Shown piece after piece: positions 8,502 through 59,939 of a stretch of 64,000 nt of DNA (position 1 is its first letter; each line of letters opens with the position of its first letter). The position numbers were made by a program, and so were the translations under genes. Under the pieces are notes generated by a model. The model ran no database searches. It was not told the origin of the DNA and saw only the letters and a list, made by a program, of their open reading frames with translations. Source of the DNA: a virus; IMG/VR virus record IMGVR_UViG_3300045988_119718, positions 128,001-192,000 of that record. One strand, given 5' to 3'.

Positions 8502-8911
8502 TAGAAACCACCCCCACATTTCTTATCATGACATGTACCACCATGGCATGATTGGCAAGATATTTGGCAAGTAGACTGACAAGATGCTTGACAGACTAAT
8601 CCACATGTACCATTGTTATTCCAATATTTCCAAGAATGTTCTTGCAATACATTGGAAATAGATTTACATAAATTATATATAGCTTTAGCATCATCTGCTT
8701 TAATAACATCACCTTGACTGATTAAGCTAATAATAGAATGAACAGTTTTAGGAACACCAATTCTAGAATATTCTATAATCTGTTTCTTTCTATATTCGTC
8801 TTTCTCTAATTCATCTATATTAGATAACATAGTCTCAATCATGTTATCATAAATAGTCTTACTAGAATTGACTAAATTATAGTGTATACCATTATTTACT
8901 ATCTTTTCCAT
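8501..8911 (-). CDS. Cys-rich precursor-like peptide A: ~106-aa leader plus the identical 30-aa core
   Basis: 136-aa ORF ending …NGTCGLVCQASCQSTCQISCQSCHGGTCHDKKCGGGF. Immediately downstream of an rSAM/SPASM gene, which it overlaps. Confidence 0.6.
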   Translation of the reverse strand: MEKIVNNGIHYNLVNSSKTIYDNMIETMLSNIDELEKDEYRKKQIIEYSRIGVPKTVHSIISLISQGDVIKADDAKAIYNLCKSISNVLQEHSWKYWNNNGTCGLVCQASCQSTCQISCQSCHGGTCHDKKCGGGF

Positions 8912-10265
8912 TATCTTCTACACCACCTTTATTATTCAATGAATATAAAATCATAGTCATAAGAATTTCAGATTTCTTTCTAAAGTATTCTTCAAATGTA
9001 GGGAATACATTATCAGAACCCAAATTATTAATCATTTCTTTAAGATGAATCAATCTAAGCTTTAATGCAAAAGTATTAGATAAATCCGCAGTATCCATAA
9101 TCATATCGATATACTTCTTAATCTCTAAATTAGTCTTAAGAATATTTAAGTATCTACTTCTAATATTAGTAGCATTAAGAATCTCAGCTTGCTTAATAAT
9201 AATTACATCGGTCATAATCTTATGAAGATCACAATAAGATTGTAAGACTTTATTCTCATCACCATTTTCTCTAAGGTTTTCTTCAGGGCAACCATTCTTA
9301 CAATTTCCTTTAGCTTTACAAGTTTCACATTCTTCTTTTTGATATACTGCTTGTTTTTCTTTTCTATCAGTATGGACTTTGGTTTCATCTACGTCAGTAT
9401 AGATATTACCAATCTTCTGTACTAATTTAATTTCATCCTTAGAAGTTGGTAATTGATGGCATGGATAGATATCCCCATTATAATCAATAGTACACCATTT
9501 ATTCAATCCAATAGGGCAAAGTAAATCATCAGATACTTCTGGTTCCATAACCTGTCTCATAAAGTCATCTATATTCTTAATAGCTATATTTCTCTTAGAA
9601 CCTTCTTCATTAAGTTTATCGACATACATATCCACTAATTCAATATAGTTTTCTTTATAGTCATTCAGTTGTTCTTCTGTCCACTCTACATCAGTTACTG
9701 GCATAGGACAAATAGAATCTATTCCTAAAGTATTTACTAAGTAATCTACACCATCATACATATACTTTGCATCTTCTGGTAAGATAGTCATTCTAGCTTC
9801 AATAAATACTTTCAATCCATTAGTAATAAGAATCTTTAAGTTCTTTACTACTTGATTCCATGAATTAGAACGGTTCTTATCATGAACATGTTTAATACCA
9901 TCAATAGATACTAATAAACCAATATTATTATCATCTACGTATTGAATGAAGTCTTTTGGCAAGAATGATAAGTTAGTAGTCATACCATAATCTACTAATC
10001 TATGATGCTTATTATTATCATCTATAACTGCTTTAATACATTCCCAATTCAATAATGGCTCTCCACCAAAGAAATTGACTTGGAACCTTCTATTAAAACC
10101 AGATAAATCATTATATGCCAGTCTCATAGCATCTACTGCTACTTCTGGCTTCATATATTTTTTATTTTTATCTTTTTCAAAACAATAGATACATTTAAAA
10201 TTACAATCATTAGTAATATCCAATGTGATAGAATCACAATCATAGACTTCTCTAAATGGTTTCAT
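8892..10265 (-). CDS. radical SAM/SPASM enzyme (probable start at the internal ATG MKPFREV…, strong RBS GGAGGA)
   Basis: 'CNFKCIYC' and a SPASM-like 'CETCKAKGNCKNGCPEE'. The track ORF extends to 10322, but the RBS 'ggaggaataatt-ATG' supports a start near 10265. Confidence 0.8.
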   Translation of the reverse strand: MKPFREVYDCDSITLDITNDCNFKCIYCFEKDKNKKYMKPEVAVDAMRLAYNDLSGFNRRFQVNFFGGEPLLNWECIKAVIDDNNKHHRLVDYGMTTNLSFLPKDFIQYVDDNNIGLLVSIDGIKHVHDKNRSNSWNQVVKNLKILITNGLKVFIEARMTILPEDAKYMYDGVDYLVNTLGIDSICPMPVTDVEWTEEQLNDYKENYIELVDMYVDKLNEEGSKRNIAIKNIDDFMRQVMEPEVSDDLLCPIGLNKWCTIDYNGDIYPCHQLPTSKDEIKLVQKIGNIYTDVDETKVHTDRKEKQAVYQKEECETCKAKGNCKNGCPEENLRENGDENKVLQSYCDLHKIMTDVIIIKQAEILNATNIRSRYLNILKTNLEIKKYIDMIMDTADLSNTFALKLRLIHLKEMINNLGSDNVFPTFEEYFRKKSEILMTMILYSLNNKGGVEDNGKDSK

Positions 10266-10350
10266 AATTATTCCTCCTAAAAAATAAATTATTATAATGT
10301 AAAAAAGATTATTAGTAGCCATATAAACGGCTACTAATATTTTCTACTAA

Positions 10351-21380: not shown

Positions 21381-22715
21381 CTATATATTGTTATTTTGGT
21401 CTTTTACTCTATTAGAATATCCTTTTTGAGTATTAATAGCATAGTTATTAATAAACTCTAAGTCTATATAGAATACTAGCTCTGAAGTTCTTTCTACTAA
21501 TGGTTGGTTAGTACTAATTGTATAGGTATTCCAATCTATTTGTATAGGAACTTCTGATAATCCATTAAATAGTTTTACATCCATAAATACTGATGGAGAT
21601 ATAAATATAGACTTAGTGTATTCAGCTATGTCAAATAATGAATTTTCATTTCTAGATTGTATGAGTTCTTTAAAGTGAATTGTAGAAGGTTTATGTTGCT
21701 CATATATATCGTTATCTTCTATATAATCAGTAGTCATATACTGATTCCAGCCTTTATCATTCTTAAATGGTATTGCTCCAATATAGAGATTATAAATAGT
21801 ACATTTTAATGCTTTATCTATTAAAGCAAAATCATGTTTATCTTTAGCATAATAAGCATAGAATTTAGGAGCTGGGAATAAACATTCTATCTGAGTAGAT
21901 ACAACAAAGTTATTGTCTGTTTGACCTTCTCTTTCTCCTTCATCTACTTCTATATCACCACATCTAAGATGTACATACATATCTGTAAGCTTAATAAAGT
22001 ATTCATATTCTCCTTTAGTTCCTCTAAACTTACAAACAAATGGTAATCTAGAGTTCTTATTTAAGAATGATAAGAATTTACAATTATCAACTACCTGTTC
22101 ATTTCTTATCTCGAATCCAGAATCTTTAGCTATAGCCAGCATCAATGCTTTAGGAACATTAAAGTCTATTTCTGCATATCTAGTTTCAGTAGCATTAGCT
22201 CTACATGCAATTTGCATAAACTTGTATAAATCCATAGCGGTATTAAATGAAGATACTTTAATTCTAAATTCAAAATCTACTTTCCATTGTTCTAAAGTAA
22301 GAGAAACCATATTCTTATTAGTAGGGTTTACAAAGAAACAATCTTTAAATCTAGTTCTATTATTAATGATATTTCTTCCTAGTAAGTATAAATCAGTATT
22401 TTCTCTATTAAAAGTATAATCCATTCTAGGTCTAATAGCTAAAGCTGGTTTATTCTTTCTAATATTATTAATCATATCATTAGATAAAAAATCTCTAAGT
22501 ATATTTCTACCAGCTATATATTCTGATTTAAAGAAATCAGGTTGAAATTTATTTTTAAACCATTTTCTCATATATTCTACACAAATAGAATATGATGAAG
22601 AAACCGATGGAATACATAATGACATAGCATATTCATTCTTAAATCGCTTTAAATCTTTTATTGGAGAATCATGAGTAGTTACTAAATATTGAGGGTTATC
22701 ATGATTAAATCCCAT
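21381..22715 (-). CDS. hypothetical protein
   Basis: 444-aa ORF. Confidence 0.5.
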   Translation of the reverse strand: MGFNHDNPQYLVTTHDSPIKDLKRFKNEYAMSLCIPSVSSSYSICVEYMRKWFKNKFQPDFFKSEYIAGRNILRDFLSNDMINNIRKNKPALAIRPRMDYTFNRENTDLYLLGRNIINNRTRFKDCFFVNPTNKNMVSLTLEQWKVDFEFRIKVSSFNTAMDLYKFMQIACRANATETRYAEIDFNVPKALMLAIAKDSGFEIRNEQVVDNCKFLSFLNKNSRLPFVCKFRGTKGEYEYFIKLTDMYVHLRCGDIEVDEGEREGQTDNNFVVSTQIECLFPAPKFYAYYAKDKHDFALIDKALKCTIYNLYIGAIPFKNDKGWNQYMTTDYIEDNDIYEQHKPSTIHFKELIQSRNENSLFDIAEYTKSIFISPSVFMDVKLFNGLSEVPIQIDWNTYTISTNQPLVERTSELVFYIDLEFINNYAINTQKGYSNRVKDQNNNI

Positions 22716-22756
22716 ATTAACTCCTCCTTTCTAAAATTAATGATATGTCCAAAAAA

Positions 22757-22788
22757 TAAAGAGATGCTGAATAATCAGCATCTCTTTA
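22757..22788 (-). terminator. hairpin 'aaagagatgctga…tcagcatctcttt' followed by a U-tract on the minus strand
   Basis: Seen directly. Downstream of beta-prime exon 2. Confidence 0.45.
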
Positions 22789-22792
22789 TAGA

Positions 22793-23032
22793 TTAATCAA
22801 TATGGTATTTTTCTTTCAACTGTTGTATCTTCTGTTTCTGCCCTATAGAATAATTATCTCTTCCAATATTGATTAAACCATTAGCATTAATAATCATATC
22901 TTTAAAAATATTCATATCATTGTTAAAGGTTCCATCATTTCTAGAAATCATCATAGAATTTCTTGGATTAAATACTTCCATAGCAGATTCCCAAAACTTT
23001 TTATTTGGCACATAGATAATATTCAAGCAATC
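22793..23032 (-). CDS. RNAP beta-prime exon 2 (begins D-CLNIIYVP…, supplying the last Asp of NADFDGD)
   Basis: 'DCLNIIYVPNKKFWESAMEVFNPRNSMMISRNDG' aligns with the E. coli beta-prime '[33 protein letters not shown]'. The track ORF's N-terminal extension (MLTHKTF…) is intron sequence. Confidence 0.6.
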   Translation of the reverse strand, partial: DCLNIIYVPNKKFWESAMEVFNPRNSMMISRNDGTFNNDMNIFKDMIINANGLINIGRDNYSIGQKQKIQQLKEKYHID

Positions 23033-23393
23033 CTTTTTCTTTACATAGGTCGTTAGTCTATGCAGTTCTCTTAAGAACGTCTTATGCGTTAGCATAAGTA
23101 GAGACTATATCTACATCTCATAGAGATGATACGCACTTCGGATACACTTGTATCCTACTCCTTACGGATAGTCGTTGAACAGAATTAGAAATTCATATTT
23201 CTAAAACTTGCTGCTGATTGTACATTGCATATACTTTTAGGATTTCTCCATGAGTAATCTTATAGATTTTTTCTGTATTTCTACTGCATTCACACTTATA
23301 CTTTCTATCGTATTATGTTGTAGCTCTATAAGCTTTAGCACTTTCCAGCAATTCACGTATTTTAAATTACACTATCGCTAGTATAATTGGCAA
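23033..23393 (-). other. group I self-splicing intron (~360 nt) in the RNAP beta-prime gene
   Basis: On the minus strand, P 'AATTGCTGGAAAG', Q 'AATCAGCAGC', R 'GTTCAACGACTAT' and S 'AGATATAGTC' occur in canonical order. The 5' exon ends in U (…GAU GGU|). The intron ends …AAAAAG| before GAT of exon 2. A candidate P1 'GCCA' pairs with 'UGGU'. Confidence 0.7.
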
Positions 23394-24773
23394 TTATTTA
23401 CCATCGAAGTCTGCTGCCATAGTTGCAAGAATCTGTAAAGGCATACCCATTGTGTAGTCATCATTAATAGCTACACATTGTACTGCCAGAATAGAACCAT
23501 AATTAATTGTAGGATTACGATTAATCAATACATTAATACCAGAAGTATCGATGATATTTTGAATAATATCTCTAATACGTTTATCCTCTTTCAGTAATCC
23601 TTGCTTATATCTCATATATGCTGTATTATATGAAATATTATAAGTTCTTACTAAAATATTAATTACAGTCTGTTGAAGTAATTCCAATAATGTAAAATAA
23701 GATAATGTAACCTGATCTACTCTAAGTTTAGGGTCGGGAACAATAACTGATCTAGATGTAAATCCACATCTACCACCAATCAGTCTTTTAATAACACCAT
23801 TCTTATCTTTGCAGATATTAATTACTTCAGTATACAGCTCCAGATATCTCTGTTGAAGATTCCACAATAGTACATTTCTATGTTTTGGAATTCTGTAAAT
23901 AGACAATGTGTCATCATTAATCTTAGCTGCTAACTTAGCCATCATATTATAGATACCATTGGTTTTTTCATATGTAAATCTACCATCTCTTCTATCAAAT
24001 GGTCTAAGAGCTGTAGAATACACTGGAATACTATGAATAAAGATTTTATCTCTATTCTCTAAGATATCTTGATAATAATCAGGTTTCTTATTTTTATTCT
24101 TCTTATGAAAATATTCTAGGATTTCATCAAATCTATGATAAAATTCAATCAATCCAATTCCTTTATACTTTTCATCTAACTTAGTCTTTCTAGTAGACCT
24201 CTTAGCTGTAGATTTAATAATTTTAGAAGAATACTTTTGTACTGGTTTACCATTTTCATCGAGATCAATAATTGGTTCTACAATAGAAGCAAACTGATCT
24301 TTACCAATATAGCTTTCCAATACATAGAATAAATTCGGATGAATAATTGGATATCCTTCTTTAAGAGTAATCCAACCAGTCATCTCAAAATCTTCACCTA
24401 CATAGATTACTCTGGAATGACAATATGGGCAGATCATTCCTTCATAATTCTTCCCTTGTGTTCTTTTGCATTTACAAGAATATCTATCTGTAAATGCATC
24501 AGGGTCTTGCATAGTTTTTGTAAACTTGGATGAGAAAATAGAATTATCGCTTTTTAATCCTACATCAATAGCTTTCTTATCATCCTCAGGTTCATCAATA
24601 ATAAACCCTTTTCCCGATATCAGGTCTTTTGCTTTCTCTTCATCTAGATTTAATCGTAACAACCTAGTTTGGAAAGTAAACTTCTTTGATACTGGATAAT
24701 TAACGGTTAAGTTTAATTCCATATTACTCTCCTTCTCTTTAAAAACAAATAAAAAAGAATGAGTCAAGCTCAT
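23394..24773 (-). CDS. rpoC: RNAP beta-prime N-terminal fragment, exon 1 (Zn finger to catalytic AADFDG)
   Basis: 'CKCKRTQGKNYEGMICPYCHSRV' (Zn ribbon), 'LRPFDRRDGRF', 'INRNPTINYGSILAVQ…AADFDG' then an in-frame stop because of the intron. Confidence 0.8.
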   Translation of the reverse strand: MSLTHSFLFVFKEKESNMELNLTVNYPVSKKFTFQTRLLRLNLDEEKAKDLISGKGFIIDEPEDDKKAIDVGLKSDNSIFSSKFTKTMQDPDAFTDRYSCKCKRTQGKNYEGMICPYCHSRVIYVGEDFEMTGWITLKEGYPIIHPNLFYVLESYIGKDQFASIVEPIIDLDENGKPVQKYSSKIIKSTAKRSTRKTKLDEKYKGIGLIEFYHRFDEILEYFHKKNKNKKPDYYQDILENRDKIFIHSIPVYSTALRPFDRRDGRFTYEKTNGIYNMMAKLAAKINDDTLSIYRIPKHRNVLLWNLQQRYLELYTEVINICKDKNGVIKRLIGGRCGFTSRSVIVPDPKLRVDQVTLSYFTLLELLQQTVINILVRTYNISYNTAYMRYKQGLLKEDKRIRDIIQNIIDTSGINVLINRNPTINYGSILAVQCVAINDDYTMGMPLQILATMAADFDGK

Positions 24774-24788
24774 TCTTTTTTATATTAT

Positions 24789-25085
24789 CTACTTGTTTTT
24801 ATCTTTGTCAATCTTAATATGAATACCGCTATCATCTTTTTTAAATTTTATTTTAAGATCAAACAGTATATTTGCAATATCACTAAGTACTCCAGCTACA
24901 CCACTACTTTCTGTTGGGCTATCATCTGGATAATAGTTTCTCTTAATTCTATGAGTATTGGATTTATCAATACGATTAACGACATGTCTCAATTCTTTCT
25001 TTTCATCTGTCATAATAAACATCCTTCCCATAAAAATAATTGTTACTGAATATGATGAGGCATGGTATTCATAGCAAAAATACAA
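24789..25085 (-). CDS. hypothetical protein
   Basis: 98-aa ORF. Confidence 0.4.
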   Translation of the reverse strand: MYFCYEYHASSYSVTIIFMGRMFIMTDEKKELRHVVNRIDKSNTHRIKRNYYPDDSPTESSGVAGVLSDIANILFDLKIKFKKDDSGIHIKIDKDKNK

Positions 25086-26755: not shown

Positions 26756-28012
26756 TCACTTCTTTAATCCGAATGCTTTCCATACATCTATTTCATGAAG
26801 TTTAACTGTAGAGTCATGGAATGCCTTTAATGCTTTAAGCTTTAATGCTGATGCTACTTGTGGCATAGCAACACCAATATCTTTAAATCCCGCTCTATAG
26901 AATAGATTTCCTGCACATACATTACAAATCTTATTAGGTTCTTTATATTCACATAAAGAAGAGAATCTCATTCTAACTGTTTTACCTAAATATTTATCTT
27001 TATTAGTAGAATTCAATTCTATAAGTTTATTTCCTTCTACTATATAAGAATACATCATAAGTTTAATATTATACTTATCTAATGTAATTTCTATAGTTCT
27101 CTTAGTACCACAATCAGTTCCTTTAGGAGCTAAAGTAAGATGCTGAAATGCTCTTAATAATAGTTTTTCATTGTACCCGCCTTCAGGGGTCTTCTTAGAT
27201 CTAGAATATGGGCCAGCTGCTAATGCTTTAGCTAATTTAGAATAATCATCTCTAGAAATACCATCAATGTAACTTGACATAGCTACGTCATAACCCTTAG
27301 TAGGGTCTGGGTCTTTAATAGCACCTTTCATTACAAAGATATTTTTAAAGTTATTAGCAAAAGAACCTTTAGCTTTGGAATCATACATATCCATAGATAT
27401 ATCATCTTTAAGTTCTTTTTTAGCATAGTCTAATAATTCTTTTTCTATCTTATCCGCAGCATACATATTTCTTTCTGGATCTGCTAATTCATCTGCATAT
27501 TTCTTTTCTAATTGTTTTTTCATTTTATCAATCTTATAAGAAATAGTAAGCATGTTTGTAGTAAATCCAGAGCATAGTATATTACAATAAGGCTGGAATT
27601 TCTGCTGTCTCATTAAATATCTTTTTAATGCAGACAATGGTAATCTATCTTCCATAATAGCATATGAAATCTGATCATTCATATCGCCTAATACATCTTT
27701 ATTTATAGGCTTATTGATATAATGGAATAAATCAAATAAGTCTTGTTCTATAAAACACTTATTGAACCACCATCTACCTAAAGTAGTAGTAAAAGTATTT
27801 TTATTCTTCTTATTACCAATACCATAAGAATTAGGTGGAATAGTAATAATATCATATGTATTATACTTTGGTGCTTTACCATTTAAAGTACCAAAAGTTT
27901 CCATAAGTTTAGAAAGAGATTCTACATCTTTTTGAGATAAATTTAAAAAATAATCTACTTCATCTTTGTTTGTAATCTTTCTAGCAACACGTTTGTTAGT
28001 AGATACTGCCAT
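26756..28012 (-). CDS. rpoC: RNAP beta-prime fragment containing the bridge helix and the start of the trigger loop
   Basis: 'KTPEGGYNEKLLLRAFQHLTLAPKGTDCGT' matches '[28 protein letters not shown]'. 'CNVCAGNLFYRAGFKDIGVAMPQVASAL' matches '[30 protein letters not shown]'. Confidence 0.75.
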   Translation of the reverse strand: MAVSTNKRVARKITNKDEVDYFLNLSQKDVESLSKLMETFGTLNGKAPKYNTYDIITIPPNSYGIGNKKNKNTFTTTLGRWWFNKCFIEQDLFDLFHYINKPINKDVLGDMNDQISYAIMEDRLPLSALKRYLMRQQKFQPYCNILCSGFTTNMLTISYKIDKMKKQLEKKYADELADPERNMYAADKIEKELLDYAKKELKDDISMDMYDSKAKGSFANNFKNIFVMKGAIKDPDPTKGYDVAMSSYIDGISRDDYSKLAKALAAGPYSRSKKTPEGGYNEKLLLRAFQHLTLAPKGTDCGTKRTIEITLDKYNIKLMMYSYIVEGNKLIELNSTNKDKYLGKTVRMRFSSLCEYKEPNKICNVCAGNLFYRAGFKDIGVAMPQVASALKLKALKAFHDSTVKLHEIDVWKAFGLKK

Positions 28013-28015
28013 TTA

Positions 28016-29068
28016 TTAGCTCACCACCTTTTTATATATTCTACCTTTATAAACATTAGAGGCAACTATACCATTTAATCTATTTTTTATATTGCCTCTA
28101 TCTTTTTCAACATAATTATTAGCTCTAAGATATTTATTTAACCCTCTATATTTTCCTATAAATTCATTAGTGGCTTCGTCATATACTTCAAATTCAAGAT
28201 TATACCTTCTATTATTAGATTGCTCTTCTTGTGTTGCCCATGTACAATTTTCAGGAGAATAGTCTTTATTTACATCTATTCTATCCATAGTTGTATTTAT
28301 TAATCCATGTTTATCAGCAAATTCTTTAAAAGAGTTCCAATTATCTAAAAAATAATTATGGAAATCATGCCATCTATCACAAACTTTTATACCTCTCCCG
28401 CCATATAACTTGTAACGATTATTAGATGGATTATAACGTTGCATCATACCTCTCCATCTTTTATAAAAAGCTCTATATGAAGGATCAGTTCTATCCTCGA
28501 TTTCGTTGTAAATTAAATGAGAATATTCATCATGCTTAGTTCCATGCCTTTTACAAAAATTACTGTAATATATTTCTTTTGTATATCCGCAAATTTTACA
28601 TTTAGCTAAAAATCTAGGCATATTATTTTTATATCCTAAAAATTTAATTAATACCATATCTTCAATAGTTTCTCCGACTTTTTCTTTATAATAATCTTCT
28701 TCACAATTTAGCCTATTGTGAAAATAATTATATTTTATAAAATTACTTTTTAATACTTTTTTTATATGCCCACATTTAGTGCATTGAATATTGCAGTATT
28801 GCTCATTACGATCTGTATACTCATCTAAAAGCTCTTTAAACTTATAATCAGTTCTAACTACATTTTTCAAAAAATCTTCATTGCAAGTATCTAGCGAATG
28901 CTTATAATGATATAACGTAATACTCTGCTTTGTTATATGTTTAATATGACCGCATTTAGTGCATTGAATAGTATAAACAGGGGCATAATGTTTATTTCTT
29001 CCATCATACGATATAATTTGGTAATCACCGATTATTTCTCCGACTAAATCTGAATAATTAGTTTTCAT
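28016..29068 (-). CDS. free-standing HNH-family homing endonuclease-like protein (three Zn-ribbon modules plus a C-terminal 'IDVNKDYSPENCTWATQEEQSNN' block)
   Basis: Three repeats of 'CTKCGHIK…SNF'. The C-terminal block is typical of phage HNH/AP2-type homing endonucleases. Strong RBS 'aaaaggag'. Immediately adjacent to the intron-like element. Confidence 0.55.
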   Translation of the reverse strand: MKTNYSDLVGEIIGDYQIISYDGRNKHYAPVYTIQCTKCGHIKHITKQSITLYHYKHSLDTCNEDFLKNVVRTDYKFKELLDEYTDRNEQYCNIQCTKCGHIKKVLKSNFIKYNYFHNRLNCEEDYYKEKVGETIEDMVLIKFLGYKNNMPRFLAKCKICGYTKEIYYSNFCKRHGTKHDEYSHLIYNEIEDRTDPSYRAFYKRWRGMMQRYNPSNNRYKLYGGRGIKVCDRWHDFHNYFLDNWNSFKEFADKHGLINTTMDRIDVNKDYSPENCTWATQEEQSNNRRYNLEFEVYDEATNEFIGKYRGLNKYLRANNYVEKDRGNIKNRLNGIVASNVYKGRIYKKVVS

Positions 29069-29199
29069 ATGCTAATATCTCCTTTTATTTTTATATTAAT
29101 ATAAGTGCTATAAAAACTAATTATTAATTTTTGGTTTTATTGTATTTTTAGAAGTAAATACTATAGTTAATAGTTATTGACTTACGTAAATCGATCAAT

Positions 29200-29557
29200 G
29201 CATTTTTATTCGCTTAGAGTCGTTAATTCTAAACCGCTTATTTAAAGCCGCTTTATGTCTCCATAAAGAGTAGATCATATCATAATCTCTATTAAAGAGA
29301 TTTCTCCCATTTCCACCCACTTGGATGTACGTCATAAAGACTGATCGTTGAACCTTCTCTATAAAAGAGCTTGGCTGCTGATTGTGCATTGTTTATACCT
29401 TTTAGGTTTTAGCCATGAGGCATCATAAAGATTGTTTCTGTTTTTCAACAACCTATGTTTAAAATATAGGTTCTTTATGCTTTAGCAGTTTCCAGCAATT
29501 AAGGAGATTTGCAAATCTATATCGCTATAGACTGGAACCATTGAATAATAATATAGC
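29200..29557 (-). other. second copy of the group I intron (P 'AATTGCTGGAAAC', Q 'AATCAGCAGCC', R 'GGTTCAACGATCAGTC', S-like 'TGATATGATC'); 3' boundary uncertain
   Basis: About 150 nt aligns with intron 23033..23393 at roughly 75-80% identity. It begins right after the stop of 29558..30394 (exon ends in U). ORF 29195..29389 lies inside it and is probably spurious. Confidence 0.5.
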
Positions 29558-30394
29558 TTAACGCTTGTTATTATCGCTTAATTCATTTGGTATGTTTAAC
29601 CTAGTTACAGGTCTGATATTCATATATTCAGCATTATCCACTGTATCAGACAATTTACCATCTGTTTTTACATAACCAGTACAAAGAGAGATAGAGTTAA
29701 TTCTAGCATCATTCAATCCTGTACCATAAAAGAAAAAGTCTCTACAATCGTCTTTGGTAATAGACATCTGCATTGAAACTATAGATTCTACTTCCATATC
29801 AGTAGACTCTTGTGTTGTATATACATTAGCGTCTATAGGAGTACCATCTGTAAATTGCTGTGTAAATACTGGATTAGAATCAAACTTCTTAAAGTAATAT
29901 GCGATTCTATCTGATTTCTCTTTTCTACCAAAGTAAGTACCAGTCTTAGTATAGTCTCTCTGTACTGGGGTTAAATCAGTATCTGGAGTGGTGTATCTAA
30001 ATGGAACAATACCACCATAAGTATCTGTATAAGCTGGATTAATCCATGAAGCATATTTAGCTGCATATACTTGTGAATTTTCTCTACCGCAGCCATCTGT
30101 ACCTACACAGAACAAGCATACTTTTTCTAGTTTATTTTCAGTATTAGATTCTTCAGAATTAGCAAAAGTAAAATCAAGCATAGAATTATAGTTCGGTGTC
30201 TTTTCAGGTTCATCAATATCAAATAACAACCTAGCTATAAATCCACCACCAGCTAATGTCATAATATTATGAGTTGTGAATAATACTTCCCCAGTATCAG
30301 TATACCATGCTTTAATAACTGTTTTAAAATTAGTACGTTCACCAGTTATACCCATGGTATCTTTTAGAGATAAAGGTTTATTTATAATAGACAT
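29558..30394 (-). CDS. hypothetical protein (candidate intron-containing gene; function unknown)
   Basis: 278-aa ORF. Confidence 0.5.
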   Translation of the reverse strand: MSIINKPLSLKDTMGITGERTNFKTVIKAWYTDTGEVLFTTHNIMTLAGGGFIARLLFDIDEPEKTPNYNSMLDFTFANSEESNTENKLEKVCLFCVGTDGCGRENSQVYAAKYASWINPAYTDTYGGIVPFRYTTPDTDLTPVQRDYTKTGTYFGRKEKSDRIAYYFKKFDSNPVFTQQFTDGTPIDANVYTTQESTDMEVESIVSMQMSITKDDCRDFFFYGTGLNDARINSISLCTGYVKTDGKLSDTVDNAEYMNIRPVTRLNIPNELSDNNKR

Positions 30395-34664: not shown

Positions 34665-35489
34665 TTATTTTTTCTCTTTTTCTAAATATTCTTTTACTTT
34701 ATCATAGTAATAGTCTTTATTTAAAAATGCTTTCTTAAATTCTTCTAAAGACCCAAATAGTTCTTGTAAATCTCTTCTGTTATCATATAAGTATTTTATC
34801 AAGTTCATATGTCTATCATAAAGTTTAGGATAATGCTGTTTTATTTTTTCTAAGTTTTCAGCAGTATTATATTGAATTGGACATATTAAGCAAGATCTAG
34901 TGAATCCTAAAGTATCATAATCTTTATTAAGCTTTATATTATTTTCCTTAATATACTCATAGCAGTCTTCATCTGTCCAATTAAATATAGGAGAAATTAT
35001 TTTTTTATTTCCTTCTTTTATGGTAATTGCAGATTTAACCCAAGTCTTAGTATTGTATAAATCGTCTTTTCTAACACCAGTGAAAAATATATCATATTTT
35101 TTTAATACTTTTGTTGTTGTTTGCCGTTTATATGAGCAGCAAGATAATAAAAATTTACTATTTATAATATTATTATCTTTGTATAATTTTTTGATATAAG
35201 AAGATAAAGCAAAACATTTATTTTCTTTCATATACTTTTCAGCATCTATACCAATAATAGTTACATCAGGTCTAGATTTAAGATAATCTAATATACCATC
35301 ATCTTCAAACCCAGTAGCAATATAATATTGATAAATAAAATCTCTTACTTTTAATTCTTTTAATAAATTATCGACGATTACACTATCTTTACCACAAGAA
35401 AATAGAAAACATGCATTATCGTCTTTAGAGTAATTATCTAAAATTATTTGTTTAGATTCTTTTATTTTTTCTTCTAGTTGATTAGTCAT
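34665..35489 (-). CDS. PAPS-reductase-family (PP-loop ATP pyrophosphatase) protein
   Basis: PP-loop 'FLFSCGKDS' (SGGxDS-like). Confidence 0.55.
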   Translation of the reverse strand: MTNQLEEKIKESKQIILDNYSKDDNACFLFSCGKDSVIVDNLLKELKVRDFIYQYYIATGFEDDGILDYLKSRPDVTIIGIDAEKYMKENKCFALSSYIKKLYKDNNIINSKFLLSCCSYKRQTTTKVLKKYDIFFTGVRKDDLYNTKTWVKSAITIKEGNKKIISPIFNWTDEDCYEYIKENNIKLNKDYDTLGFTRSCLICPIQYNTAENLEKIKQHYPKLYDRHMNLIKYLYDNRRDLQELFGSLEEFKKAFLNKDYYYDKVKEYLEKEKK

Positions 35490-58577: not shown

Positions 58578-59939
58578 TTAATTCTTAATCTGCTCTTTAT
58601 ATAATTCCACGAAAAGTTCATAAGAGTTCTTTAATACATCAATGTTATTGTAGAAATCTTTCTGGGATCTTTCAATAACATCTTCTAATTGCTTTGCTAA
58701 GCCTTGTACTTCCTGCTGTGCAAACTGACTATCTCTTACTTTAATAAAGTGAAGCATATTTTCCATTGTAAAAGTATACATAGCATTGGTAGTTACATTC
58801 ATAGGTAAGAATGCTCTAGCATCTTGGTTAATCATACCTTGCTGTTTAAGCTGAGGATAGAGTTTAATAATTTCTTCACCTAATTCTTCAGATGTCATAT
58901 TAAACTCTTTACCACCAAATTTGAATGCATACTTCTTATTGATATCAGGATATGCTTTAGGGTTAAATGGAAGAGGATCAACAAATAATGCTTTCTTAGA
59001 ATAATCTACATATCTCTGAGATTCTTGAGAAATAGCGCATAAGTGTCTATTTACCTGTTGAGAAATAGCTCTAGAGAAATTCTTCATTTTAAAGCTAACA
59101 GTAGTACATCTAAAGATAGCTTTCATAAAGAGTTTAGCCTGTTCTTTATTTAGTTTATACATTCCTTCAGGGTCAATAAGTTCAACATGATCTTCATAGT
59201 GATCAGCAATACGTACTAAGATATCATTATATATAGCAATGATATCAGGGTAATTATACATAAAAATATTTTTATTAGAATATAGACGACTTTCATCAGT
59301 AAATGAGTTATCAAGATAATATGGATATTTATACTTAAATTCATCCAAGTCTACATAATCCTTCATATCTTCAAAGAACTCTTTTTCAATACTGTGTTTA
59401 GCAATATCCAAAATAACTCTATACAGGTCAAAGTTAAAGTTAGTTTCATTCTCAGATACAATACTGTCTGGGAGAGTACTATTTTGAATAAAATATCTAA
59501 ATGCTCTGATAGACCCTGACATTAATACGAAATACTCTTTAGCATCTTTATTATGAATAAAGTCTAAAGGTACGATATTCATGAAGTGTAATGCTGATAA
59601 ACTGGTATAGATAGAAGATAAATCAAAATCAGAGAGAACTGTATTATTCGATTTAAAACACAGCAAAACCATAATATTGGAATGACCACAAATAGAATCA
59701 TGACCATATCCCATAACTCTTTTAATATGAGCTAAGCATTTATCATATGTATTTTCTGGTGCTAACCCATAGCATGTTCTAGCAGCCATACTACAAAGAA
59801 ATGCTGATTCAGTATTATCAATAATATCGTAGGTAATAACGATATTGCGATTAGATTCATTCTGTAATTGTTTATTCATCTTTGAAGAATCTTTATTAAA
59901 GAATTCTTTAAGTTTGTTACGATTAAAAATCATAGTCAC
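58578..59939 (-). CDS. divergent ThyX-like (flavin-dependent thymidylate synthase family) protein of two pseudo-halves
   Basis: First half 'AARTCYG…GYGHDSICGHSN'. Second half 'NRHLCAISQESQRY', which resembles the ThyX signature RHRxxSxxxxSxRY with the third Arg replaced by Leu. Confidence 0.4.
   Translation of the reverse strand: MTMIFNRNKLKEFFNKDSSKMNKQLQNESNRNIVITYDIIDNTESAFLCSMAARTCYGLAPENTYDKCLAHIKRVMGYGHDSICGHSNIMVLLCFKSNNTVLSDFDLSSIYTSLSALHFMNIVPLDFIHNKDAKEYFVLMSGSIRAFRYFIQNSTLPDSIVSENETNFNFDLYRVILDIAKHSIEKEFFEDMKDYVDLDEFKYKYPYYLDNSFTDESRLYSNKNIFMYNYPDIIAIYNDILVRIADHYEDHVELIDPEGMYKLNKEQAKLFMKAIFRCTTVSFKMKNFSRAISQQVNRHLCAISQESQRYVDYSKKALFVDPLPFNPKAYPDINKKYAFKFGGKEFNMTSEELGEEIIKLYPQLKQQGMINQDARAFLPMNVTTNAMYTFTMENMLHFIKVRDSQFAQQEVQGLAKQLEDVIERSQKDFYNNIDVLKNSYELFVELYKEQIKN

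Follow-up and report, generated by a model that had tools for sequence, protein, structure and literature searches.

The split polymerase gene and its setting

The window, meaning the whole 64,000-nt stretch analysed here (positions 128,001 to 192,000 of the IMG/VR virus record IMGVR_UViG_3300045988_119718), has a G+C content of 29% and encodes on its minus strand the beta'-N subunit of a non-virion RNA polymerase (nvRNAP). The gene lies in two exons separated by a group I intron, and is accompanied by two terminator-like hairpins:

24783..24749, minus: terminator-like hairpin, covering the upstream ATG (24773) of the exon 1 ORF
23400..24773, minus: exon 1, non-virion RNA polymerase beta'-N, ending GAT GGT (...AADFDG)
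23399..23033, minus: group I intron, 367 nt
22793..23032, minus: exon 2, 79 codons and stop, starting GAT TGC (DCLNIIYVPNKKFWES...)
22756..22789, minus: terminator-like hairpin with T-run, 4 nt past the exon 2 stop

The ORF that contains exon 1 (24773..23394) ends ...NRNPTINYGSILAVQ...MAADFDGK-stop, and the 100-aa ORF that contains exon 2 (23095..22793) includes ...KKKDCLNIIYVPNKKFWES... Because an uninterrupted homolog, P0001, begins MELNL and because the upstream ATG falls within the hairpin at 24783..24749, the true start is probably ATG 24722 (MELNL...), which gives a protein of 520 aa. Pfam PF00623 (RNA_pol_Rpb1_2) matches residues 333-458 of exon 1 with 36.8 bits. The best match among solved structures is the beta'-N subunit of AR9 nvRNAP (7S01_d, E=7e-43; 7S00_d likewise, about 1e-42), followed by phiKZ gp55 (7OGP).

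The closest sequenced phages by protein are phiR1-37, Bacillus phage BpSp, Goe21 and AR9, all only about 29-31% identical, and a nucleotide search of the gene against phage genomes returned short intron-core matches only and no close relative. The relatives are metagenome assemblies, on contigs of 180-285 kb. The earlier note had implied a phage like AR9 and PBS1; at this level of protein identity, and with no nucleotide match outside intron cores, that attribution fails. By sequence, the phage is an uncultivated AT-rich jumbo phage and not an AR9/PBS1-like Bacillus phage.

A 418-aa ORF (28012..26756, minus) matches phrog_2962, 'RNA polymerase beta subunit' (E=2.4e-65); beta'-N thus has another polymerase subunit gene some 2 kb upstream. 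PHROG and Pfam scans of the neighbouring ORFs mostly gave no matches. Elsewhere on the minus strand of the window are a radical SAM protein (phrog_1802, 8892..10322), a PAPS reductase-like protein (phrog_424, 34665..35489) and a thymidylate synthase-like domain (phrog_85) in the C-terminal part of a 453-aa ORF (58578..59939).

Boundaries, anatomy and covariation of the intron

Read from the sequence, the last base of exon 1 is T23400 and the final base of the intron is G23033. The intron begins AAATAATTGCC... and ends ...GTAAAGAAAAAG; its opening six bases, AAATAA (23399..23394), read through from exon 1 as Lys-stop. The earlier note had proposed that a group I intron splits the catalytic motif of beta'-N, and this is borne out by the Rfam match described below and by the G|D junction in AADFDG|D. 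It was also right about the 3' end, about the start of exon 2 (GAT TGC onward, D-C-L-N-I-I-Y-V-P) and about the terminal exon U and terminal intron G, now identified as T23400 and G23033. Its range of 23393..23033 leaves out the first 6 nt, the true start being 23399, and its description of exon 1 as ending AADFDG-stop has the right residues up to the glycine while leaving out the lysine of AADFDGK-stop.

Detection depended on how the scan was done. When 22700..23800 was scanned alone, the Rfam group I intron model RF00028 matched 23409..23081 on the minus strand (model positions 1-253) with 50.0 bits and E=1.7e-11, a score exactly at the gathering threshold of 50. Scans of the whole window, in gathering and E-value modes, did not report the intron, since its score only equals the family threshold and the speed filters discard the hit. 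The RF00028 scan had been set beforehand as a check, with the lack of a match to count against the claim; a match was found. The ORF list holds no homing endonuclease ORF within 23399..23033.

The elements of the RNA are as follows, with helices named by their usual numbers:

23386..23405, minus: P1, exon GAUGGU (23405..23400) plus intron AA, paired with the internal guide UUGCCAAU (23393..23386)
23395..23392, minus: AAUU, possible P10 with GAUU at the start of exon 2 (4 pairs, one of them G-U)
23368..23385, minus: P2 hairpin, UAUACUA-GCGA-UAGUGUA, loop GCGA
23354..23360, minus: P3 5' strand AUACGUG, partner UGCGUAU at 23135..23129
23353..23341, minus: element P, AATTGCTGGAAAG
23350..23345 with 23217..23212, minus: P4
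23341..23338 with 23223..23220, minus: P5, with a branched extension of about 110 nt
23212..23350, minus: region of P4, P5 and the P5 extension, with covariation in helices 2 to 9
23219..23210, minus: element Q, AATCAGCAGC
23185..23204, minus: P6 hairpin, 8 pairs, UUAGAAAU-AUGA-AUUUCUAA
23180..23168, minus: element R, GTTCAACGACTAT
23168..23173, minus: P7 5' strand GACUAU (in R), partner AUAGUC at 23108..23103 (in S), pseudoknotted with P3
23140..23167, minus: P7.1 (CC-GUAA-GG) and P7.2 (GGAUAC-AAGU-GUAUCC), between P7 and the P3 3' strand
23114..23128, minus: P8 hairpin, CAUCUC-UAU-GAGAUG
23112..23103, minus: element S, AGATATAGTC
23098..23081, minus: P9
23078..23065, minus: P9.1, GUUCU-UAAG-AGAAC
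23062..23044, minus: P9.2, CAUAG-ACUAACGAC-CUAUG
23033, minus: terminal G, 11 nt past P9.2

All four core elements named in the earlier note (P, Q, R and S) are thus located on the minus strand in the order it gave, and both pairings hold: P with Q as P4 (UGCUGG/UCAGCA) and R with S as P7 (GACUAU/AUAGUC). By analogy with other group I introns, P7 is the putative guanosine-binding helix. The sequence and the Rfam alignment agree on a U-G wobble at the P1 splice site, between T23400 and a G of the guide UUGCCAAU. P1 contains an A-A mismatch at exon position -5, and has only about five standard pairs on the exon side. An unconstrained minimum-free-energy fold (-81.4 kcal/mol, z=-2.9) recovers all helices from P2 to P9.2 except the pseudoknot.

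Subgroup IA introns (IA2-like) combine P7.1/P7.2 with P9.1/P9.2. Both helix pairs are present here and recovered by the fold, and by architecture alone the intron is IA-type, IA2-like. The T4 introns of td, nrdB and sunY are subgroup IA2 introns with P7.1/P7.2 and P9.1/P9.2, found at conserved catalytic codons of nucleic-acid enzymes. The window intron shares that architecture, while the P5 extension of its family is unusually large and branched.

Covariation was assessed by projecting the derived structure on an alignment of 30 sequences and counting pairs. A search with the window intron (nhmmer) gave 27 compact full-length relatives. The P9.1 16-mer is present in more than 120 viral contigs; relatives were gathered by the P9.1 pattern, so P9.1 itself lies outside the covariation test, and among the collected relatives a GCGC/GCGC variant of it occurs in one (L066) alone. 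Standard pairs fill 82.9% of cells across the 30 sequences, versus 62.3% after shuffling and 33-43% when the partner strand is slid by 1-3 columns. The covariation score is 0.452, versus 0.152 for shuffled alignments (0/500 reach the observed value) and at most 0.105 for slid ones. Changes on both sides are seen in 68 of 90 pairs. They include six of the seven pairs of P3 (89% of cells paired), 8/8 pairs of the long P5a stem and 5/5 pairs of P9.2 (97.9% of cells paired); P7.1 and P7.2 also covary (helices 13 to 15). In P7, 97.8% of cells are paired and three pairs are double-changed in one relative. Taken together, the helices from P3 to P9.2 covary strongly. In four other introns of the family that have P9.2 (L010, L012, L013 and that of Vibrio phage vB_pir03, hereafter pir03), whose 3' splice sites were set independently, by protein homology, the terminal G likewise lies 11 nt past P9.2.

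The tail formed by P9.1 and P9.2 (23095..23033) is open in the frame of exon 2, as are the tails of L012, L013 and pir03, and so gene callers run exon 2 into the intron. The tail peptides of the window intron and these three are alike (TFLRELHRLTTYV, FIRELHRLTTYV, FIRELRRLTTCV), which is probably a by-product of conservation at the RNA level together with a constant tail length.

The splice junction is fixed by comparison with genes that lack the intron. The intron splits beta'-N between the G and D of AADFDG|D, and three uninterrupted homologs, P0001 (98% identical, 520 aa), P0002 (89%) and P0003 (82%), span exon 1 and exon 2 contiguously. At the junction they read ...MAADFDGDCLNIIYVPNKKFWES... 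/ ...ATMAADFDGDCLNIIYVPNKKFWESAMEVFNPRN..., which equals the predicted splice product (AADFDGDCLN). In DNA, the contig of P0001 (L004) is 95-96% identical to the window over 24800..23401 and 23032..22700, lacks exactly the 367 nt between them, and reads ...AADFDGDCLNIIYVP... at the site. The spliced protein raises the PF00623 score to 45.2 bits (profile positions 1-152), from 36.8 for exon 1 alone, with a match that crosses the junction. Its alignment to 7S01_d likewise passes unbroken through the junction (Maadfdgdclnii against SGDYDGDVLNII). The predicted spliced RNA would thus join ...GACTTCGATGGT to GATTGCTTGAAT (GATGGT-GATTGC). Moving the junction by one base, so that the exon would end ...GATGG and the intron in A, leaves the protein unchanged but breaks the rules of U at position -1 and terminal G, and was rejected.

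Alleles of the intron and related introns

Near relatives of the window show the site in several states. The exon 1 ORF is found in identical form on nine contigs. The endonuclease-less intron is present in two contigs, L005 and L007, where it is 97-98% identical to that of the window. A third (L006) has it enlarged by 690 nt in the P6 loop, and this insertion codes for an HNH_3 protein of 244 aa; another (L008) terminates exactly where the endonuclease-bearing and endonuclease-less forms branch. The L006 protein is 34% identical to the HNH protein of the L012 intron, and shares only the HNH core (about 53 residues) with g271 of AR9. The empty allele (L004) reads GATGGA|GACTGC where the intron allele reads GATGGT|GATTGC, so that both flanking wobble bases differ. 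These differences fit a requirement for U at exon position -1, and may reflect co-conversion or endonuclease resistance.

Three states of the homing cycle thus coexist in the lineage, namely empty site, intron with HNH gene and intron without it, and the intron may be or have been mobile. Having no endonuclease gene, the window intron is unable to spread on its own. It would currently be a passenger, homing only if a relative provided the endonuclease.

The window has one more member of the family (29580..29201, minus, 380 nt; RF00028, 64.0 bits, E=1.8e-15), likewise detected only by a sub-region Rfam scan. The two window introns are 61% identical to each other. The second interrupts a 278-aa ORF (30394..29558) 17 codons short of its true end, with exon 2 at 29200..29148. 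Its predicted spliced product is a conserved protein of 288 aa ending ...IPNESLIDLRKSITINYSIYF, and an uninterrupted homolog (P0121, 98% identical, 242 member sequences) has a tail identical to this prediction. The exon end GAAU can pair with a guide GUUC, and P7 is GAUCA/UGAUC. A tblastn search of phage genomes with the 278-aa ORF found nothing. Past the stop of this exon 2, and 4 nt before the RNAP beta-like gene, is a free-standing 350-aa HNH ORF (phrog_374, 29068..28016, minus). The HNH ORF is absent from a 93%-identical relative (L138), which has about 12 nt in place of window 29150..28017. A free-standing endonuclease beside an endonuclease-less intron recalls 'collaborative homing'.

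Introns of the family also occur at other bonds of the same catalytic motif. Among the best 120 beta'-N homologs, 87 are full length and 33 (within P0021 to P0109) break off inside a region of 45 codons. At least 20 of these end right after NRN, six after AAD and one after ADFD, while six are unclassifiable. About a quarter of related beta'-N genes, among these best 120, are thus interrupted in one stretch of 45 codons. Four truncated homologs were checked. Three (L010, L011 and L013) have introns of the window family at AAD|FDGD, 9 nt upstream of the window site, and the fourth (L012) has one at DFD|GD, 3 nt upstream, that carries an HNH/NUMOD4 ORF. Vibrio phage pir03 (MT811961; L009, 81751..83073) has an ORF-bearing family intron of 1323 nt at NAD|FDGD, also 9 nt upstream of the window site; in its GenBank record no intron is annotated, and small ORFs separate two fragments labelled 'RNA polymerase beta prime subunit'. 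Against the family profile pir03 gives E=7.6e-55, and L010, L011 and L013 give 1e-43 to 1e-56. The pir03 intron tail is 91% identical to window P9.1-P9.2 over 45 nt. The introns of pir03 and L010 to L013 thus share catalytic motif and subunit type with the window intron, and all end in G; the 5' exon of pir03 apparently ends in C, whereas that of the window ends in U.

The family occupies other genes too, among them that of a family-B-type DNA polymerase, at the motif ...NDFD|...ALYPSI, and the PBS1 large terminase. The introns that nhmmer ranks nearest to that of the window (on viral contigs L051, L071, L027, L043 and L046) have very short ORFs at their flanks. Upstream they share a sequence with the translation ...HTRDFSHE..., and the gene they interrupt may be small or non-coding.

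AR9 provides the nearest parallel in position. Its g270 gene (GenBank KU878088) is annotated as a two-piece join with the HNH endonuclease gene g271 inside, while Goe21, near-identical to AR9, has one continuous gene without intron. A preprint (bioRxiv 10.1101/2020.12.14.422802) describes the non-virion beta'-N gene of AR9 as disrupted by an intron, with reference to Lavysh et al. 2016, and we take the status of the AR9 intron from the GenBank join and this secondary citation. The g270 intron interrupts the orthologous subunit at the identical bond, GGT|GAY (GGT and GAC in AR9, DYDG|D). Its P1, GACGGU|AA...UUGCCGUC, has the same register and U-G wobble as that of the window intron, with a compensatory change at exon position -4 (C-G in AR9, U-A in the window). 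The RNAs differ in other respects. The AR9 intron is 897 nt with its HNH gene in P6, versus 367 nt and no endonuclease gene in the window; it is without the long P5 extension, and its 3' tail is unlike that of the window intron. Homology of the two RNAs was considered and rejected, since nhmmer found no match at the AR9 locus from the window intron (E<=1e-3) or from the family profile (E<=10). Given the lack of an RNA match and the differences in P5, tail and HNH gene, by sequence the two introns are at the same site but of different lineages.

Similar cases extend beyond Bacillus phages. The PhiPA3 gp210 intron is a group I intron in a virion RNAP beta gene (Birkholz et al., Science 2024; PMC11620839). 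Like the window intron it lies near conserved catalytic Asp residues of a jumbo-phage multisubunit RNAP; it differs in belonging to the virion polymerase and the beta subunit, at another site, and in carrying an endonuclease. Its HNH enzyme targets the intron-less allele, with nicking and a competitive advantage demonstrated experimentally (PMC11620839). Introns in RNA polymerase genes are also described for the Staphylococcus MarsHill group, and RNA polymerase genes of jumbo phages are often interrupted (bioRxiv 10.1101/2020.12.14.422802); gut jumbo phages have about 18 introns per genome (PMC12880540). The earlier note had called introns in RNAP genes a signature of giant Bacillus phages such as AR9. 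The link to AR9 stands, through the g270 intron at the same bond; the signature does not, given pir03, PhiPA3 and the MarsHill group.

Splicing, rival explanations and meaning

Very probably, 23399..23033 is a functional subgroup IA-type group I intron in the nvRNAP beta'-N gene of a jumbo phage. Direct support comes from the sequence, from a structure that covaries, from an empty site that matches to the base and from the protein that removal of the intron restores; from these we infer catalysis. The pre-mRNA would fold into P1 to P9.2, and free guanosine bound at P7 would attack just past T23400, where the U-G pair ends exon 1. With exon 2 held by the internal guide through P10, the 3'-OH of exon 1 would attack after G23033 and join GAT GGT to GAT TGC, a ligation predicted to restore the catalytic motif AADFDGD. 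The unspliced product would end AADFDGK, without the third metal-binding Asp and without the last 79 residues.

Three other explanations were weighed. That the intron has decayed and no longer splices, so that beta'-N is a pseudogene or the phage uses another polymerase, seems improbable. The missing homing endonuclease gene, the Rfam score that only reaches threshold and the mismatch in P1 would suit decay; yet the core helices are all intact, with P3, P4, P7 and P9.2 matching the covariation of the family. Exon 2 moreover is open and 96% identical to that of the intron-less relative, and the same arrangement is found on nine contigs from different samples. RNA polymerase of this kind is essential in AR9 and phiKZ, and a subunit that bears the catalytic motif of an enzyme essential in studied relatives is a poor candidate for a pseudogene.

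The remaining two are more improbable still. Splicing at G23081, where the Rfam alignment stops, would be in frame, as no stop lies between 23095 and exon 2, and would add 16 residues (TFLRELHRLTTYVKKK) between G and D. We rejected this site: the insert is absent from the intron-less homologs, the PF00623 score falls to 37.9 bits from the 45.2 obtained with G23033, and 23080..23033 form P9.1 and P9.2, the latter covarying in 5/5 pairs and followed by the constant 11-nt family tail that ends in G. It is equally hard to credit a gene split into two polypeptides, with exon 2 translated from ATG 23095 and the spacer an unrelated structured RNA. The 100-aa ORF at 23095..22793 does exist, and in jumbo phages separate genes often encode parts of one RNA polymerase subunit (PMC7598289), but the break would fall within the DFDGD loop, a complete group I core makes up the spacer, and the 98%-identical relative has a continuous gene with 367 nt precisely missing. 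A spliced intron ending at G23033 remains by far the best account of the locus.

A broader and distinctly speculative idea, to which we give a low probability, concerns the motif as a target. One intron lineage would have shifted among adjacent bonds (AAD|FDGD, DFD|GD and DFDG|D) within nine bases of the codons for the catalytic FDGD residues, with independent AR9-type lineages converging on the same bond, making the metal-binding loop a contested landing pad. Site shifts, guide changes, and gain and loss of endonucleases would then be moves in an arms race of co-infecting jumbo phages, and the window copy could be kept as a shield against the endonucleases of relatives.

For annotation the consequences are practical. 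Gene callers yield two ORFs, one of 459 aa whose Lys-stop end is spurious and one of 100 aa whose start is spurious, where the predicted true product is a single 520-aa protein with the DFDGD motif intact, and a routine Rfam pipeline run on the contig would overlook the intron. AR9 already provides a case of such an intron at precisely this bond; the window supplies a new example and not a new phenomenon, and leaves the understanding of group I introns and of jumbo-phage transcription unchanged. What it adds is an uncultivated AT-rich jumbo-phage lineage to those whose RNAP genes have been colonised at catalytic codons.
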